Shown: positions 1 through 5,891, numbered from the stretch's first letter. The stretch is 5,891 bases of DNA from a plasmid (GCF_054482525.1 NZ_JBTHVG010000008.1), one strand, 5' to 3'. Program-made: numbers and translations. Notes: generated by a model not told the origin, from the letters alone.

Positions 1-414
1 TCTGTCAGCGAGGCTGTGACATCAAACGAGACGAAAATCAGAGACGCTATAGCCCTGTTCACAGTCTCGACAGAGAAATCGCTGGAAAAACACCGGGAAG
101 GGGTGAAAGAGGCGATGATGCAGCACAGGAAGGACGTGTTAAAGCTGGCAGGGAATACGGGCATGATGTTACTGGGGATAGTCTTTCTTCTGTTTACCGC
201 GAGTGGCGGGACGCTCTGGTATCTTGGCGGACGGATACAGACGAACCTGGAAGAAATCAGGAAGCAGGAAGAGACATTGCAGAAACTGAACGCGAAGACA
301 TGGGGCGTGGAGTTTGTGCAGGACGGGAACAGGAAATTTCTGGTCCTTCCGTACGGGAAATCAGCAGAGATGATTCCCTTTCAGGGGAAAGAGTGGGTAC
401 ATCTGAAGGAGTGA
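1..414 (+). CDS. mbeB: Mobilization protein MbeB, 3' portion (5' partial at window edge; the first 35 codons lie at 5787..5891 if the window is circular)
   Basis: Frame 1 is open from nt 1 to TGA at 412-414. The track ORF 16..414 starts at an internal GTG. The translation contains one hydrophobic transmembrane-like segment (MMLLGIVFLLFTASGGTLWYLGG). The gene is nested out of frame inside mbeA, as in ColE1. Joined to 5787..5891 it gives 172 aa, the length I recall for ColE1 MbeB. Confidence 0.75.
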   Translation, partial: SVSEAVTSNETKIRDAIALFTVSTEKSLEKHREGVKEAMMQHRKDVLKLAGNTGMMLLGIVFLLFTASGGTLWYLGGRIQTNLEEIRKQEETLQKLNAKTWGVEFVQDGNRKFLVLPYGKSAEMIPFQGKEWVHLKE

Positions 415-761
415 CACAGAGTGACAGAGCTGGAAACACATTTGCTGAACGCCTTAGAGCAGCTGCAACAGGACTATATGCAGCGGCTGAGCGAATGGGA
501 GAGCGCCTTCGTGGAATTGCAGAAGATGTTTTCGCTTACGCAACGGGACAACGCGATGCTGAACGAGCGGGTCATGCAGTTGAGTCAGCAGGTGCAGCAC
601 TTGAGCGAGCAGACAGAACGCTTGAGCCAGTTATACAGCGAGAACTGGAGATAAGAGAGGAACGGTTGATGCAGGAGCGCGAACATGCGTTATCCCTGGA
701 ACGGGAGCGTCAGCTGGAAATACAGGAACGCACACTGGATGGCCCTTCGCTGGGATGGTGA
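3..761 (+). CDS. mbeA: Relaxase MbeA, C-terminal portion (continues from 5099..5891 across the window ends)
   Basis: I translated frame 3 codon by codon from nt 3 and found no stop until TGA at 759-761. The track reports only 300..761 because it begins at the first ATG. The single base left over at 5891 plus nt 1-2 completes one codon (gtc), so the two parts are in frame and sum to 517 aa. Confidence 0.8.
   Translation, partial: CQRGCDIKRDENQRRYSPVHSLDREIAGKTPGRGERGDDAAQEGRVKAGREYGHDVTGDSLSSVYREWRDALVSWRTDTDEPGRNQEAGRDIAETEREDMGRGVCAGREQEISGPSVREISRDDSLSGERVGTSEGVTQSDRAGNTFAERLRAAATGLYAAAERMGERLRGIAEDVFAYATGQRDAERAGHAVESAGAALERADRTLEPVIQRELEIREERLMQEREHALSLERERQLEIQERTLDGPSLGW
421..654 (+). 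CDS. mbeD: Mobilization / entry-exclusion protein MbeD-like, 77 aa
   Basis: GTG start at 421, directly after the mbeB stop and nested inside mbeA in a different frame. The product is a small glutamine/leucine-rich, probably coiled-coil protein (MTELETHLLNALEQLQQDY...). Position and size match the ColE1 mbeD arrangement as I recall it. Confidence 0.65.
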   Translation: MTELETHLLNALEQLQQDYMQRLSEWESAFVELQKMFSLTQRDNAMLNERVMQLSQQVQHLSEQTERLSQLYSENWR

Positions 762-966
762 AACCATGAAAAATGGCAGGTTCATTGGATTAAGGCGGAC
801 TAATGTGCTCTGTGCCATCTGGTTGCATAGGTATTCATACGGTTAAAATTTATCAGGCGCGATCGTGGCAGTTTTTCGGGTGGTTTGTTGCCATTTTTAC
901 CTGTCTGCTGCCGTGATCGCGCTGAACGCGTTTTAGCGGTACGTACAAACTGTTGTTATGTTAAAT
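760..966. other. cer-like Xer (XerC/XerD) multimer-resolution site: accessory sequences plus core at 938..966
   Basis: The stretch 846-946 (gcgatcgtggcagtttttcgggtggtttgttgccatttttacctgtctgctgccgtgatcgcgctgaacgcgttttagcggtacgtacaa) closely matches ColE1 cer as I remember it. Core: XerC-arm-like GGTACGTACAA (938-948), central region actgttg (949-955), XerD-arm-like TTATGTTAAAT (956-966). Each arm is one mismatch from the cer arms GGTGCGTACAA and TTATGGTAAAT. Confidence 0.7.
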
Positions 967-988: not shown

Positions 989-1873
989 TTATCCGAAGAG
1001 CAATCCCCAAACACTTTTAGCTACAGAAACAATGGCTTTCTTGGCGACTTTAGCCACTGACGCTATTGGTTTAGGTAGTACGGTGTCTATTATATCATCA
1101 ATAGCTCTATCTACGGTGTCTGCGAACCCGTCCTTTGCCGTTTCTACAATTTCTTTTGTTTTTATTTCGTCTTTTACTTGATGCACCACTCCGCTCTGTG
1201 CTTCCTTTGGGAGCGATCTTACTATTGCCTCCACTAACCTTGAAATGTTATAACCTTCATTCGCAGATACAGATATAACGGGATGTTTGGTAAAACCGAA
1301 TCGTTCTATTAAGTATTCTTCCTTTTTTCTAATATTTATTTGTTGTGAGGGTGATGGTTGGTGTTTTTCTTCATCCCATTCGCGGAATGGCTCAATCTTG
1401 TCGACTTGGTTTAAAACAAACAACACTTTTTCATCACCACCAACTGGTTTTAAAACATTTTTATAAAAGTGCTCATCAGCTGAAAATGCTCGATCATCAC
1501 CTTTAACAACCCAAAGCACCAGATCTAATTCTGGGAGAAGATTTTTATACAACTCTTCATATTCTATATCTTTAGCTTCATTTTCACCTACACCTGGTAT
1601 ATCTATTATTTTAATTGTTCTATCACCAAATGAAATTATTAATTCCTGAACCTTTCTCGTGCATGCTTCTACATCACTCACTGCACATACATTACCTTTA
1701 AAGATAGAATTACATAGGCTGGATTTACCAGCGCCGGTTTTACCCATAATCCCTATTACTGGTTCGTAATTAATAACATTTCTAATTTTGTTATAGACAG
1801 ACTTGCGAATCTCTTTAGGTAGAACATCCACAGCTTCTTTGATTAATTTTATACCTTGCGTATTGTTTTCCAT
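989..1873 (-). CDS. P-loop GTPase of the YfjP/YkfA/YeeP (MMR_HSR1-like) family with C-terminal amphipathic tail, 294 aa from the MENNTQ start
   Basis: The track ORF is 989..1960 on the minus strand. I prefer the ATG at 1873 (MENNTQGIK...): it has a GAGGA about 11 nt upstream and avoids overlap with the upstream gene, which ends at 1909. Motifs read in the translation: G1 GIMGKTGAGKSS, G3 DIPG, G4 NQVD, G5 SVSA. Conserved blocks ELDLVLW, DEHFY and QPSPSQQ resemble the E. coli CP4-prophage GTPases YkfA/YfjP/YeeP as I recall them. The C-terminus (PKPIASVAKVAKKAIVSVAKSVWGLLFG) looks amphipathic. Confidence 0.8.
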   Translation of the reverse strand: MENNTQGIKLIKEAVDVLPKEIRKSVYNKIRNVINYEPVIGIMGKTGAGKSSLCNSIFKGNVCAVSDVEACTRKVQELIISFGDRTIKIIDIPGVGENEAKDIEYEELYKNLLPELDLVLWVVKGDDRAFSADEHFYKNVLKPVGGDEKVLFVLNQVDKIEPFREWDEEKHQPSPSQQINIRKKEEYLIERFGFTKHPVISVSANEGYNISRLVEAIVRSLPKEAQSGVVHQVKDEIKTKEIVETAKDGFADTVDRAIDDIIDTVLPKPIASVAKVAKKAIVSVAKSVWGLLFG

Positions 1874-1908
1874 AGTTACTATTTTCCTCATTTTGTTGTT
1901 CATATGAA

Positions 1909-2343
1909 TTAACGGAAGCTTGTTTTTCTTTCTTCTTTTTCTTCCCCGCATACAGAACATTTGTAATGGCGATAGGTATCAGAACTCCCACTAAGATACC
2001 AATTGTGTCTTTTACCATGAACTCGCTCTGTAAAACATCTCACGCATCTTTCTTTCACATTGCAATAATCATCGACTGCAATTTCAACAAATCTTTCATG
2101 CCTTTCGCCTTCTTGTTCAGCGCCACAGTCGATACACTTTTTTACAGTTGTGCACTTGAAATCGTATTTATAACTTTCCTCTCCGTATTTATGCTGTTCT
2201 TTTTGTATAGTGCGATTGCAGTCAGGGCATAGTTTAGAATATTTACAAGTCTCACCATCAATAAGCTTATAGTTTCCTCCGTGTATACCTACCCCACACT
2301 TAGCCTTGATTGCTGCATTTTTTATGCTATCCCAAAAGCCCAT
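1909..2343 (-). CDS. Cysteine-rich small protein (144 aa) with three tandem CX5CX2C motifs plus a terminal CX2C; putative multi-zinc-ribbon protein
   Basis: ATG at 2343 (minus strand) is preceded by GGGAGA at about 7 nt spacing. The translation has 12 Cys arranged as CKYSKLCPDC, CTTVKKCIDC, CNVKERCVRC and CSVC, spaced about 30 aa apart. It ends 35 nt before the GTPase start, so the two are probably co-transcribed. I recognise no family. Confidence 0.7.
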   Translation of the reverse strand: MGFWDSIKNAAIKAKCGVGIHGGNYKLIDGETCKYSKLCPDCNRTIQKEQHKYGEESYKYDFKCTTVKKCIDCGAEQEGERHERFVEIAVDDYCNVKERCVRCFTERVHGKRHNWYLSGSSDTYRHYKCSVCGEEKEERKTSFR

Positions 2344-2389
2344 GGAAAAATCTCCCTACGATTAGTTGATATAAGTTGAACAATTCATC

Positions 2390-2440
2390 GACATGATTAT
2401 ACACGTATAGTGTGTGGATATATAAAAATGAGTATGGATT
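2390..2440 (-). promoter_or_regulatory. Candidate sigma70 promoter for the Cys-rich/GTPase gene pair (perfect -10 TATAAT on the minus strand at 2396..2401)
   Basis: The minus strand reads ...acgtgTATAATcatgtcg... about 50 nt upstream of the 2343 start codon. The -35 region is AT-rich and weak (TATATA-like). This is an inferred position within a 227-bp AT-rich intergenic gap (2344..2570). Confidence 0.3.
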
Positions 2441-2570
2441 TATGCTCTGTATAATGTTTTTGTTATGTTAAATATAGCGCTGAAAAAGTGGGGGCACTGG
2501 ATAAACTTCGTGTTTTTCCCGCAAAGATAGTATTGGAAAGTCATTGTCTAATTCATCCAAGATAAATATT

Positions 2571-3383
2571 TTACGAATTTGTGAGTTTGCTTGAGATTTT
2601 TATATATTCAGCCTTTATTAACTCATTGCCATATTTTTTCTCGAGTCTTTTAACAATGAAATGACCTCGAGCCATATCTTGATAATAGTCGGTAAACATT
2701 GTGTTTAATGTGGCTCCAGTTAGTGCTCCAATAACGGGAACGACTTGAGCTGCCATTTTTTCCGTAATAACTATACCAAATCTTGTTGCAACTTTTTCTA
2801 TTAACGAAGCTAACCATTTTCCTGTTTGTACTGAAGATGCGTTTTTGACAGCAATGTTAGAAATTTCTTTGGATAAATCTTGTACGATCTCGGCAGTCAA
2901 ACTTCTTGTTGCATAGTATGCAGTATTAGCTGCATCATCGTCATCAGATGGTCCTCCCAAGGAAAACACCTCTAAGCAGGCCAGTTTGGTATCAATATTA
3001 TCTAGCTCAAAACCTTCACTTCTTGCTATGTCAGCAATTGAACGAAGCATAATTGTCGTTGAAACCGGTAACTCAATTGCTAATGCAGAAAAGCCAAAAG
3101 CGCCACCAATGGCTCCAGATACGGCCGCAAAGAATTTATTTGTCTTAGTTGATGCTATTCGGTTAGGTTCATTGTCTAGACTCCATAAGGCCGCATCAGC
3201 AGCTTTGTGGAGCGATTTTTCTACTAGACTATAAATTTGCTCTTCTGCCCCTTTGGGAAGTTTACTCATTAAGTAATCTATTGGGGTTCCAACTAATTGG
3301 GTTAATGTTTCAGTAATTGTATCTTGTTCTAATAATTCTACGGCCCTTTCTAAAGCCCGCAGATCTCCTTCTTCAAGATGCAT
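2571..3383 (-). CDS. EcsC-family-like protein (putative), 270 aa
   Basis: Long minus-strand ORF. Its ATG at 3383 is preceded by AAAGGA at about 9 nt. It has Gly/Ala-rich hydrophobic segments (AAVSGAIGGAFGFSALAIELPVSTTIMLRSIADIARSEGF and VVPVIGALTGATLNTMFTDYY) that I associate with EcsC-family proteins. That assignment is from memory and unverified. Confidence 0.6.
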   Translation of the reverse strand: MHLEEGDLRALERAVELLEQDTITETLTQLVGTPIDYLMSKLPKGAEEQIYSLVEKSLHKAADAALWSLDNEPNRIASTKTNKFFAAVSGAIGGAFGFSALAIELPVSTTIMLRSIADIARSEGFELDNIDTKLACLEVFSLGGPSDDDDAANTAYYATRSLTAEIVQDLSKEISNIAVKNASSVQTGKWLASLIEKVATRFGIVITEKMAAQVVPVIGALTGATLNTMFTDYYQDMARGHFIVKRLEKKYGNELIKAEYIKISSKLTNS

Positions 3384-3536
3384 ATAATGAATCCTTTATG
3401 AATCAATCGATAGTCTACTTTTGTAAGTGATTCGTCTTGGGAGCTTACCTTGAGCGAGTTCAGTGATTCAATAGGCGAGATGCCGACATCATTGTTGTCT
3501 GTGAAGCAGGAGTGATGAAAAGATCAAAGGATCCTC

Positions 3537-3565
3537 TTGTGATCCTTTTTTTCTGCGCGTAATCT
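3537..3565 (+). promoter_or_regulatory. RNAII (primer) promoter: -35 TTGTGA (3537..3542), 17-bp spacer, -10 TAATCT (3560..3565)
   Basis: Positional and sequence equivalent of the pBR322/pMB1 RNAII promoter (TTGAGA - 17 bp - TAATCT). The transcription start is predicted at G3573. Confidence 0.7.
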
Positions 3566-3574
3566 GCTGCCTGT

Positions 3575-3682
3575 AAACAAAAAAACCACCGCTACCAACG
3601 GTGGTTTGTTTGCCGGATCAAGAGCTACCAACTCTTTTTCCGAAGGTAACTGGCTTGGTGGAGCACAGATACCAAATACTGT
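3575..3682 (-). ncRNA. RNAI antisense copy-number control RNA (about 108 nt)
   Basis: The minus strand beginning at 3682 reads acagtatttggtatctg..., the RNAI 5' end. It is complementary to the 5' end of RNAII. Its promoter (-35 TTGAAG, -10 CTACACT) lies at 3689..3718 on the minus strand. Confidence 0.85.
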
Positions 3683-3688
3683 CCTTCT

Positions 3689-3718
3689 AGTGTAGCCGCA
3701 GTTAGGCCACCACTTCAA
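3689..3718 (-). promoter_or_regulatory. RNAI promoter (-35 TTGAAG, -10 CTACACT on minus strand)
   Basis: The reverse complement of 3689..3718 reads ttgaagtggtggcctaactgcggctacact, matching the pBR322 RNAI promoter apart from one base in the spacer. Confidence 0.65.
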
Positions 3719-4119
3719 GAACTCTTAATATCTCAATCCACCTTGTCCAGTTACCAGTGGCTGCTGCCAGTGGCGCTTTGTCGTGTCTTACCGGGTTGGA
3801 CTCAAGACGATAGTTACCGGATAAGGCGCAGCGGTCGGGCTGAACGGGGGGTTCGTGCACACAGCCCAGCTTGGAGCGAACGACCTACACCGGGCCGAGA
3901 TACCAACAGCGTGAGCTATGAGAAAGCGCCACGCTTCCCGAAGGGAGAAAGGCGGACAGGTATCCGGTAAACGGCAGGGTCGGAACAGGAGAGCGCACGA
4001 GGGAGCCACCAGGGGGAAACGCCTGGTATCTTTATAGTCCTGTCGGGTTTCGCCACCTCTGACTTGAGCGTCGATTTTTGTGATGCTCGTCAGGGGGGCG
4101 GAGCCTATGGAAAAACGCC

Positions 4120-4140
4120 AGCGGCGCGGCCTTTCGTTGC
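4120..4140 (+). other. ColE1-type origin of replication (RNAII-to-DNA transition)
   Basis: The sequence aaaaacgccagcggcgcggcctttcgttgcc corresponds to the pBR322 ori switch region (aaaaacgccagcaacgcggcctttttacgg). Confidence 0.65.
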
Positions 4141-4369
4141 CCTTTGCCTTTTTGCTCACATGTTCTTTCCGGCCTTATCCCCTGATTCTGTGGATAACCG
4201 TATTACCGCCTTTGAGTGAGCCGGCACCGCTCGCCGCAGCCGAACGACCGAGCGTAGCGAGTCAGTGAGCGAGGAAGCGGAAGAGCGCCGGAACGTGCAT
4301 TTTCTCCTTACGCATCTGTGCGGCATTTCACACCGCATATAGCGCTCTTTTCTTACAATCTGCACTGAT

Positions 4370-4440
4370 GCCGCATGGTTAAGCCAGTATACACTCCGCT
4401 ATCGCTACGTGACTGGGTCATGGCTGCGCCCCGACACCCG
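4370..4440 (-). other. oriT / bom (basis of mobility) with nic region near 4381..4385
   Basis: The reverse complement of 4376..4440 reads cgggtgtcggggcgcagccatgacccagtcacgtagcgatagcggagtgtatactggcttaacc, the pBR322 bom sequence, which contains the nick site in the TGGCTTA context. It lies between the origin and rom, as in pBR322. Confidence 0.65.
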
Positions 4441-4529
4441 CTAAAACCTGCTGACGCGCCCTGACGGGCTTGTCTGCTCCCGACATCCGCTCACAGGCAA
4501 GCTGTGACCGTCTCCGGGAGCTACATGTG

Positions 4530-4721
4530 TCAGAGGTTTTCACCGTCATCCCCGAAGCGTGAGAGGCAGCTGCGGTAAAGCTCATCGGCGTGCTCGTGAA
4601 GCGATTCACAGATGTCTGCCTGTTCATCTGCGTCCAGTTCGTTGAGCTTCTCCAGCAGCGTTAATGTCTGGCTTCTGATAAAGCGGGCCATGTTAAGGGC
4701 GGTTTTTTCCTGTTTAGTCAC
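4530..4721 (-). CDS. rom: Rom/Rop, RNA-one modulator (63 aa)
   Basis: The translation MTKQEKTALNMARFIRSQTLTLLEKLNELDADEQADICESLHEHADELYRSCLSRFGDDGENL differs from pBR322 Rop, as I recall it, at only two residues. It has a GTG start with GGAGG upstream and is convergent with RNAII, as in pBR322. Confidence 0.9.
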   Translation of the reverse strand: MTKQEKTALNMARFIRSQTLTLLEKLNELDADEQADICESLHEHADELYRSCLSRFGDDGENL

Positions 4722-4761
4722 TGATGCCTCCGTGTAAGGGGGTATTTCTGTTCATGGGGTA

Positions 4762-5109
4762 ATGATACCGATGAAACGCGAGAGGATGCTCACGATACGG
4801 GTTACTGATGATGAACATGCACGGTTACTGGAACGCTGTGAGGGTAAACAACTGGCGGTATGGATGCGGCGGGTCTGCCTGGGTGAGCCGGTTGCCCGTT
4901 CCGGGAAGCTGCCGACACTGGCACCGCCGTTACTGCGTCAGCTGGCTGCCATCGGGAATAACCTGAATCAGACGGCGAGGAAGGTGAACAGCGGGCAGTG
5001 GTCTTCCGGTGACCGGGTTCAGGTGGTGGCCGCACTGATGGCCATCGAGAGAGAGTTGCGCAGCTTACGGCAGGTCGTCAGGGAACAGGGAGCGCGGGAT
5101 GATAGTTAA
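4762..5109 (+). CDS. mbeC: Mobilization accessory protein MbeC (MobC family); start codon uncertain among 4762, 4771 and 4786
   Basis: The track ORF begins MIPMKRERMLTIRVTDDEHARLLERCEGKQLAVWMRR..., which is the reading frame whose first 30-odd codons survive as the mob remnant in pBR322. The stop at 5107-5109 overlaps the mbeA start. A start at 4786 would give the 107 aa I recall for ColE1 MbeC. Confidence 0.8.
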   Translation: MIPMKRERMLTIRVTDDEHARLLERCEGKQLAVWMRRVCLGEPVARSGKLPTLAPPLLRQLAAIGNNLNQTARKVNSGQWSSGDRVQVVAALMAIERELRSLRQVVREQGARDDS

Positions 5110-5891
5110 ATTTCATGCCAGGGGAAAAGGCGGTGGCAGTGGTCCGGTTGATTACCTGCTGGGAAGGGAGCGTAACCGGGAAGGGGCAACGGTGCTTCAG
5201 GGTAATCCGGAAGAAGTCCGGGAACTCATCGATGCCACGCCATTTGCGAAGAAATACACGTCAGGTGTTCTGTCGTTCGCGGAGAAGGAACTGCCGCCGG
5301 GAGGACGTGAAAAAGTGATGGCGAGCTTTGAGCGTGTACTGATGCCCGGTCTCGAAAAAAATCAGTACAGCATCCTGTGGGTTGAGCACCAGGACAAGGG
5401 ACGGCTTGAGCTGAATTTTGTCATTCCGAACATGGAGCTACAGAGCGGAAAACGCCTCCAGCCGTACTATGACCGCGCAGACAGGCCGAGAATTGATGCC
5501 TGGCAGACGCTGGTGAATCACCATTACGGGCTGCATGACCCGAATGCCCCGGAGAACCGCAGGACGCTGACACTCCCTGATAACCTGCCGGAAACGAAAC
5601 AGGCGATTGCTGAGAGCGTTACACGGGGGCTTGATGTGCTTTACCGTACCGGAGAGATAAAAGACCGTCAGGATGTGATTCAGGCACTCACAGATGTGGG
5701 AGTTGAGGTTGTCAGGGTGACGCGAAGCAGTATCAGCATTGCAGACCCGAACGGCGGAAGGAATATCAGGCTGAAAGGAGCATTTTATGAGCAATCTTTT
5801 ACAGACGGGCGCGGAGTTCGAGAAAAAGCTGAAAGAGAGAGCCGAATCTACAGAGAAAATGCTGAACGACGAGTTCAGGAAGCTCGGCGAG
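5099..5891 (+). CDS. mbeA: Relaxase MbeA (MOB-HEN / MOBP5 type), N-terminal portion, 3' partial at window edge
   Basis: This ORF is absent from the supplied track because it has no stop inside the window. I translated by hand from ATG 5099 in frame 2 and found no stop through 5891. The product begins MIVKFHARGKGGGSGPVDYLL (catalytic Tyr19 context) and contains the HEN signature in WVEHQDKGRLELNFVIPN. It overlaps the mbeC stop by 11 nt. Confidence 0.9.
   Translation, partial: MIVKFHARGKGGGSGPVDYLLGRERNREGATVLQGNPEEVRELIDATPFAKKYTSGVLSFAEKELPPGGREKVMASFERVLMPGLEKNQYSILWVEHQDKGRLELNFVIPNMELQSGKRLQPYYDRADRPRIDAWQTLVNHHYGLHDPNAPENRRTLTLPDNLPETKQAIAESVTRGLDVLYRTGEIKDRQDVIQALTDVGVEVVRVTRSSISIADPNGGRNIRLKGAFYEQSFTDGRGVREKAERESRIYRENAERRVQEARR
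5787..5891 (+). CDS. mbeB: MbeB, 5' portion (35 codons), nested in mbeA in the +1 frame; continues at 1..414
   Basis: ATG at 5787 is preceded by AAGGAG at 8-nt spacing. Frame 3 is open from there to the window end with the last codon complete at 5889-5891, so it joins frame 1 at nt 1 without a shift. Confidence 0.7.
   Translation, partial: MSNLLQTGAEFEKKLKERAESTEKMLNDEFRKLGE

Follow-up and report, generated by a model that had tools for sequence, protein, structure and literature searches.

We report that the plasmid sequence examined here (GCF_054482525.1, NZ_JBTHVG010000008.1), a stretch of 5,891 nucleotides whose full length we call the window, very probably carries a standard ColE1-family mobilization (mbe/mob) module, in which mbeB and mbeD are nested within the relaxase gene mbeA, have internal starts of their own, and are maintained by selection acting on both coding layers. 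The module is ordered mbeC, then mbeA, with mbeB and mbeD inside mbeA. This nested arrangement is already known; it is the standard ColE1 layout, widely conserved and ordinary. What decides in favor of nested genes, as far as sequence can decide it, is comparative evidence: matches to family hidden Markov models (HMMs), conservation in 20 plasmids, and substitution patterns.

Two genes in the +1 frame of mbeA

The circular plasmid NZ_CP085865.1 (5,891 bp), pMV-v4-SK2-O-b of Klebsiella pneumoniae, obtained in Switzerland from a swab taken at a veterinary clinic, is a 100% match to the full-length window in two pieces, and the window is thus a complete small circular plasmid. Relative to that record it is reverse-complemented and rotated, with the cut falling inside the mobilization genes (mbeA/mbeB). 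All mob gene coordinates given here were therefore taken on the window read as a circle with its ends joined, and all lie on the plus strand.

The relaxase gene mbeA occupies 5099..5891 and 1..761 and comprises 517 codons ending in a stop at 759-761. Its 5' part (5099..5891) holds codons 1-264 plus one nucleotide, and its 3' part (1..761) carries nested genes in the +1 frame. A sequence-only reading of the window had placed mbeB inside mbeA in the +1 frame behind an AAGGAG ribosome-binding site, with about 520 nt of overlap, and mbeD at 421..654 directly after mbeB in the same frame. We recovered each of these elements. The Shine-Dalgarno-like AAGGAG lies at 5775..5780, separated by a 6-nt spacer from the mbeB ATG (5787-5789), and mbeB (5787..5891 and 1..414; 172 codons, stop at 412-414) lies wholly inside mbeA, so that the overlap is refined to 519 nt, stop included. 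The window edge splits mbeB into its first 35 codons (5787..5891) and a remainder of 137 codons plus the stop (1..414), the latter encoding the transmembrane segment and C-terminal beta domain. The mbeD gene (421..654; 77 aa) begins with GTG 6 nt past the mbeB stop, in the same +1 frame, and ends 107 nt before the mbeA stop; in most relatives mbeD starts with ATG. A second AAGGAG (406..411) overlaps the last mbeB codons, 9 nt before the GTG. In NZ_CP085865.1, the RefSeq coding sequences (CDSs) for mbeB (3778..4296) and mbeD (3538..3771) map exactly to these coordinates.

The distribution of stop codons follows this layout. Ahead of mbeB, 687 nt of mbeA have 11 stops in the +1 frame; between the start of mbeB and the end of mbeD, the stops of these two genes are the only ones in that frame. 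The +2 frame is interrupted throughout. The sequence-only reading had also warned that open reading frame (ORF) calling blind to window edges and nested genes misses genes here, and a mechanical ORF list indeed returns only the truncated pieces 16..414 and 300..761.

Family assignment and conservation of the nested genes

All three proteins score above curated cut-offs. MbeA reaches 869 bits with NCBIfam NF047848 (relax_MbeA_E1, plasmid mobilization relaxase MbeA; cut-off 500) and MbeB 76.8 bits with Pfam MbeB_N (PF04837; cut-off 22). MbeD is recognized by two models, Pfam MbeD_MobD (PF04899), with 121 bits and a cut-off of 21.6, and NCBIfam NF033829, with 120 bits and a cut-off of 60. The family models start at residue 1 of both nested ORFs. 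MbeA is a HUH-type relaxase (517 aa) belonging to the HEN subgroup, which is defined by a catalytic tyrosine in motif I and by His-Glu-Asn, instead of three His residues, in motif III (PMC12857230, PMC3297438). The corresponding residues, Tyr19 (5153-5155) and His97/Glu104/Asn106 (5387-5416), are present and invariant among 15 aligned homologs, and MOB-suite types the relaxase of NZ_CP085865.1 as MOBP. With a HEN relaxase, nested mbeB, nested mbeD and an upstream mbeC, the plasmid shows the defining features of a ColE1-type (MOB-HEN / MOBP-HEN) module that sequence can test.

We compared the region with ColE1 and 19 other plasmids (n = 20) from Escherichia, Salmonella, Klebsiella, Citrobacter, Enterobacter, Edwardsiella, Erwinia, Yersinia and Aeromonas, in which MbeA identity ranges from 99.8% down to 43%. 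In every one of these relatives, mbeB is an ATG-initiated +1-frame ORF with an upstream GGAG/GGGG-type motif, and a MbeD-family ORF follows it in the same frame, usually after a gap of 0-6 nt. The most distant relative, an OXA-232 plasmid (L020), seems to lack mbeD when screened by BLASTP, a reading that we rejected as an artefact of sensitivity, as its +1 frame holds a 90-aa match to MbeD_MobD (72.6 bits). A wider tblastn search with MbeB over the plasmid collection returned 2,013 records, and in 1,873 of them a single site covers 80% or more of the protein. Of 40 records sampled across this set, 38 gave single unbroken alignments; the other two were a cut at a record edge and a remnant. None of the related plasmids combined an intact mbeA with a disrupted mbeB or mbeD frame, the pattern that the sequence-only reading had named as speaking against nested genes.

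Chance expectation and substitution patterns

When the MbeA protein was kept and its codons were redrawn, 168 of 5,000 recodings left the +1 frame open over a stretch no shorter than the one observed, and the span contained no more than two +1 stops in 251 of 5,000. Judged by itself, this sequence has an open +1 frame that is only mildly unusual (p about 0.03-0.05), and given such weak significance we did not rely on the single-sequence ORF-length test. Stops in the +1 frame are rare by chance because the C-terminal half of MbeA is rich in Arg, Glu, Gly and Ala.

Substitutions among related plasmids are more informative. We calculated the ratio of nonsynonymous to synonymous substitution rates (dN/dS) by the Nei-Gojobori method (NG86), as the median of pairwise ratios in a set of close plasmids. 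In the mbeA frame the ratio is 0.12 before mbeB, rises to 1.0-1.4 in the mbeB overlap and 0.78 in the mbeD overlap, and falls again to 0.15 in the tail beyond mbeD; in the nested frames it is 0.47-0.58 for mbeB and 0.27-0.57 for mbeD. Mean pairwise nucleotide differences in the same close set, sorted by mbeA codon position, behave similarly. Non-overlapped mbeA varies mainly at the third position (0.015, 0.018 and 0.083 for positions 1, 2 and 3), as does the mbeA tail (0.010, 0.046 and 0.190). Within the mbeB overlap the order is reversed (0.191, 0.172 and 0.126), and since mbeA position 1 is mbeB position 3 there, the most variable position follows the nested frame.

Variable sites were also classified by their effect in both frames, using six close plasmids, and the counts were set against the full range of single-base changes that could occur. 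Where mbeB overlaps mbeA, 28 changes were silent in mbeB and nonsilent in mbeA, against 12 of the reverse kind, a 2.6-fold excess in rate (binomial p = 0.004). The substitution comparison suggested in the sequence-only reading thus comes out in support of coding in the nested frame of the mbeB overlap. Purifying selection acts on the nested frames and on the ends of MbeA, and for most of the overlap the stronger constraint comes from mbeB and mbeD.

These results bear on a simpler explanation, in which the +1 ORFs are non-coding by-products of a MbeA C-terminal composition (Arg, Glu, Gly, Ala) that is poor in +1 stops. The recoding counts given above are compatible with such a by-product, as is the richness of the overlapping part of MbeA in Arg, Glu, Gly and Asp. 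Composition, however, does not account for two ORFs that both exceed curated family cut-offs, for the retention of ORFs, start codon and Shine-Dalgarno motif in 20/20 relatives down to 43% MbeA identity, or for a substitution pattern that tracks the nested frame. Nor does it account for the architecture of MbeB (an N-terminal region, a transmembrane segment and a beta domain), which is still conserved at 26% identity and for which a confident fold is predicted. Families, conservation, fold and substitution pattern together essentially refute the by-product explanation, and we consider it highly improbable.

Maintenance of the mbeA frame across the overlap

Genuine nested genes raise the converse question of whether mbeA itself is maintained where they overlap it. 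When the MbeB protein was kept and its codons were redrawn, the mbeA frame acquired a mean of 10.2 stops and was open in 0 of 5,000 recodings; the same procedure with the mbeD protein left the mbeA frame open in 31 of 5,000. In the plasmids themselves, the mbeA frame is open to a normal C-terminal tail in 17 of the 18 relatives that could be read to the end of mbeA, the exception being an Erwinia plasmid with a frameshifted tail (L013). MbeA ends in DGPSLGW (residues 511-517; codons at 738..758), with Gly512 nearly invariant, and a GP(S/T)(L/M) core is recognizable in most of the distant homologs. The mbeA frame is thus kept stop-free and ends in a conserved motif, and both coding layers are maintained.

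This evidence must be weighed against the possibility that the real relaxase consists of the N-terminal 230-280 residues and that the extension of mbeA over mbeB and mbeD is non-functional read-through. A short relaxase would be consistent with the mbeA-frame dN/dS of about 1 over mbeB and with the predicted disorder of MbeA residues 284-416. It would also fit the RefSeq annotation of a 99.4%-identical E. coli plasmid, in which mbeA is given as a 321-nt partial pseudogene (151..471) 'missing C-terminus'. That plasmid nevertheless has an intact 517-codon mbeA ORF, and the authors of a 2024 study identified 487 pseudogene calls of this kind as misannotations and removed them (PMC11229322). Moreover, the frame that MbeB-keeping recodings never leave open is open in nearly all relatives. 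The mbeA tail beyond mbeD has low dN/dS and varies at the third position of the mbeA frame, the C-terminal GPSL motif is conserved, and MbeA residues 234-280 are helical, confidently modelled, and more conserved than the MbeB residues that overlap them. We therefore regard a relaxase that ends before the overlap as very unlikely, and favor a full-length MbeA encoded together with the nested genes.

Uneven constraint between the two frames

Although both layers are maintained, the constraint is not evenly shared. Mean pairwise amino-acid identity over 18 plasmids, calculated for the two proteins encoded by the same DNA, is 58.6% for MbeA and 50.7% for MbeB in the first 52 mbeB codons, 30.1% and 37.7% in the rest of mbeB, and 57.4% for MbeA and 64.8% for MbeD in the mbeD stretch. 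Structure predictions divide MbeA in a comparable way. In AlphaFold (AF2) models built from small alignments, the relaxase domain and a helix at residues 234-280 are reasonably confident and helices appear again at 408-510, whereas the roughly 130 central residues over mbeB (284-416) have a predicted local distance difference test score (pLDDT) below 35 and no secondary structure. The MbeB model (pLDDT 85) consists of a long helix (residues 2-135), with a hydrophobic stretch at about 89-112 within it, and then a beta domain of four strands. Taken together, the identities and models make the middle third of MbeA look like a spacer, with MbeB determining its sequence.

One relative differs from the window in just this region. 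Plasmid CP088798.1 (L007) is 97-99% identical to the window at the nucleotide level over mbeA nt 1-720 and 93-97% over mbeD, but only 47-70% identical across mbeA nt 766-1200, which cover the mbeB body and the MbeA spacer (window 1..414 compared with 1389..1919 of CP088798.1); nt 450-600 of mbeA form another, less pronounced patch of variation. The sharp drop at nt 766-1200 suggests cassette-like recombinational exchange of the mbeB body.

From the low pLDDT of residues 284-416, the dN/dS of about 1 there versus 0.15 in the tail, the conserved end motif, and the drop in identity in CP088798.1, we tentatively propose that the overlap is a mosaic, a reading that we consider possible but doubtful. 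The sequence of the disordered stretch of MbeA (about 284-416) would be dictated by MbeB, and selection on it would do no more than keep the frame open for the sake of the C-terminal helices and the GP(S/T)L motif, a possible signal recognized by the coupling protein of the helper plasmid. The mbeB body and the spacer would then form an exchangeable cassette that could set helper specificity.

Proposed expression and function of the nested genes

When the sequence was scanned for sigma-70 promoters, nothing promoter-like preceded either mbeB or mbeD, and the total number of sites was lower than in shuffled sequences. Given the lack of such sites before the nested genes, we assume that a single mRNA, starting upstream of mbeC, would serve all the mob genes. 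On this mRNA, mbeB would be initiated internally at its own AAGGAG-ATG within mbeA, and mbeD at the second AAGGAG-GTG. The ribosome-binding site of mbeD lies within the last mbeB codons, and its translation is therefore probably coupled to that of mbeB.

MbeB and MbeD could in principle be made instead as fusions that carry the beginning of MbeA, through programmed +1 ribosomal frameshifting. Nothing specific points to this beyond the fact that the nested genes occupy the +1 frame of a gene that is itself translated. Against it, both ORFs have a start codon and a canonically spaced Shine-Dalgarno motif in all homologs, and both are matched by their family models from residue 1. In addition, a +1 stop at 5772, 15 nt upstream of the mbeB ATG, would confine any shift site to about five codons. 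On the start signals, the upstream stop and the family-model starts we rejected programmed frameshifting, for which we see almost no chance, and retain internal initiation.

In the literature, MbeA is the relaxase that nicks the origin of transfer (oriT), MbeC is its ribbon-helix-helix partner, and MbeB and MbeD are accessory mobilization proteins (PMC5935869, PMC2831885, PMC6118388); a passage in PMC2831885, citing Yamada 1995, further attributes entry exclusion to MbeD. For ColE1, work by Boyd (1989), Yamada (1995) and Varsaki (2003) is reported to show that these proteins are produced and required for mobilization with a helper. Following these accounts, MbeA and MbeC would nick oriT, and the strand would be piloted through the type IV secretion system of a helper plasmid. 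MbeD is a 77-aa coiled-coil protein, and the 172-aa MbeB is predicted to combine its long helix with one membrane-spanning segment and a small beta domain. MbeB may act as a membrane-anchored adaptor that links the relaxosome to the coupling/transfer machinery of the helper.

Several points weigh against the overall reading. Naive dN/dS is biased in overlapping frames, which is why we classified variable sites by their effect in both frames, and in the mbeD overlap that test points in the same direction (5 v 3) with eight informative events (p = 0.31). The molecular role proposed for MbeB is one that we infer, for a protein whose model had no match with E < 1 in a PDB fold search. The translation of MbeB and MbeD is read here from the genes alone; a proteomics paper that mentions MbeB contains no protein-level evidence for it, and the ColE1 protein products and phenotypes are taken from secondary citations. 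Finally, a frameshift near the mbeD 3' end in the Erwinia plasmid alters both MbeD and the MbeA tail.

The Erwinia case (L013, Erwinia aphidicola NZ_CP142287.1) merits a closer description. The frameshift, at about 2290..2400, extends MbeD to 102 aa and puts the normal MbeA tail (…QRQRTYDGPAL) in the third frame, so that both genes are damaged together. The plasmid encodes two MOBP relaxases, and this mob copy may be decaying, or the frameshift may be a sequencing error.

Comparison with known mobilization systems

Boyd, Archer and Sherratt reportedly described the ColE1 mbeA/mbeB/mbeC/mbeD region in 1989, and the nested genes are said to have been on record since then. ColE1 itself (NC_001371) has the same gene order, frames and lengths as the window (mbeA 517 aa, mbeB 172 aa, mbeD 77 aa), with 1488 of 1554 nt identical over mbeA (95.8%) and an identical MbeD. 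The two plasmids also have the same type of replicon, and their backbones, with RNAI, rop and the oriT region, are 93-96% identical. They differ by 30 amino acids in MbeA and 7 in MbeB, and the colicin/immunity/lysis and exc genes of ColE1 are replaced in this plasmid by low-GC GTPase/EcsC cargo.

The identity with ColE1, together with published descriptions of related plasmids (PMC9282650, PMC5935869, PMC6118388), bears out the view in the sequence-only reading that such dense overlap is an established ColE1 feature. In pSNC3-Kan, mobA (1659-3212, 1554 nt) contains mobB (2347-2865, 519 nt) and a GTG-start mobD (2872-3105, 234 nt), the latter two termed 'internally encoded' (PMC9282650); the geometry is identical to that found here, with mobB beginning at mobA nt 689 and mobD 6 nt after mobB. 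The same nested layout has been described for pCS36-4CPA (PMC5935869), which is locus L015 of our set and in whose sequence we confirmed it, and Col plasmids of Salmonella Heidelberg have been described in comparable terms (PMC6118388). ColE1-like plasmids such as pSNC3-Kan, pEC34B and pCS36-4CPA differ from the window in using mob rather than mbe names and in lineage divergence, which is greatest in the mobB/mbeB body.

A similar layout occurs in RSF1010/R1162, where mobB lies inside mobA/repB and is read in another frame (PMC2200642). There too an accessory mobilization gene sits inside a relaxase gene in a different frame, and we treat the likeness as a functional analogy. The RSF1010 relaxase is of the MOBQ type with a C-terminal primase, unlike the MOBP(HEN) enzyme here (PMC12857230), and its gene contains one nested gene rather than two. 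The nested mobB of RSF1010 is best seen as an analogous but presumably unrelated case.

Neighboring genes, replicon and cargo

Upstream of mbeA, mbeC (4786..5109; 107 aa, a RefSeq CDS) matches PF05713 MobC (50 bits) and PF21983 NikA-like (35 bits) and shares its last 11 nt with the beginning of mbeA; if translation began at another ATG further upstream, at 4762, the protein would have 115 aa. At the other end, a 53-aa mbeE-like ORF in the +1 frame (685..846) overlaps the final 77 nt of mbeA and is labelled 'mobilization protein' in RefSeq (WP_071779130.1). It had no match in Pfam or NCBIfam, its start is not conserved in ColE1, where a stop occurs four codons past the equivalent ATG, and variation in the stretch of overlap follows the mbeA-frame pattern. 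Its status as a coding gene is doubtful.

The replicon is of the ColE1 type, with RNAI at 3577..3680 (minus strand; Rfam RF00106, 68.6 bits) and Rop at 4530..4721 (minus strand; PF01815). ColE1 (NC_001371) aligns at 93-96% identity with window positions 3517..5890 and 1..948; within this alignment, ColE1 585..2971 matches window 3517..5890 at 92.9% and includes the homologous oriT region. The nic site presumably lies at about 4380-4480, between the origin and rop, a position that we assume from the pBR322/ColE1 bom region and the layout in PMC9282650. Inside the RNA II/origin region, a 52-aa ORF on the minus strand (3702..3860) carries the RefSeq label 'replication initiation protein' (WP_071529495.1), as does its counterpart in the ColE1 record. 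To our knowledge, ColE1-type replicons require no plasmid-encoded initiator, and this ORF is therefore probably a spurious call.

Several E. coli and Salmonella plasmids of 5,878-5,892 bp are 97-99% identical to the window, and the same cargo is found in 5.88-5.89 kb plasmids of these two hosts. The cargo (about 989..3383, minus strand) stands in place of the ColE1 colicin/exc region and consists of three genes with a GC content of 33-40%, compared with 51-61% in the backbone. They encode a 294-aa GTPase with MMR_HSR1 and dynamin-N matches, a Cys-rich 144-aa protein without a family, and an EcsC-family protein. Weak PADLOC matches link the GTPase to LeoBC/LeoA (1e-11) and the EcsC protein to the candidate defence protein PDC-S29 (2.7e-10), and these genes may form a defence module. 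A direct repeat of 15 nt, TTGTTATGTTAAATA, is present in two exact copies, at 953-967 and 2460-2474, 1,507 nt apart, and brackets the GTPase and Cys-rich genes. The first copy lies in what we take to be a cer-type XerCD core, and the placement of the pair around these two genes hints at Xer-site-associated module capture.

Implications for annotation of ColE1-family plasmids

The nested arrangement has a marked effect on automated annotation. In RefSeq records produced by the Prokaryotic Genome Annotation Pipeline (PGAP), mbeA is omitted or reduced to a partial pseudogene while mbeB and mbeD are kept. This holds for NZ_CP085865.1, for loci L002-L019 and L021 of our set, and for the ColE1 reference. 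A usable RefSeq mbeA is absent from all the fetched relatives whose own mbeA belongs to the MbeA family, and the OXA-232 plasmid (L020) alone lists a relaxase CDS.

In summary, the nested genes carry little weight as a discovery, and the practical value of the case lies in annotation. Mildly new angles are the uneven constraint between the two frames, the conserved end motif of MbeA, and the mosaic boundary around the mbeB body. The mbe locus also offers a clean natural example for teaching and benchmarking methods that measure selection on overlapping genes. The nested mbeB/mbeD layout recurs in thousands of sequenced small plasmids, and a dropped mbeA can make mobilizable plasmids look as if they had no relaxase and can inflate pseudogene counts.

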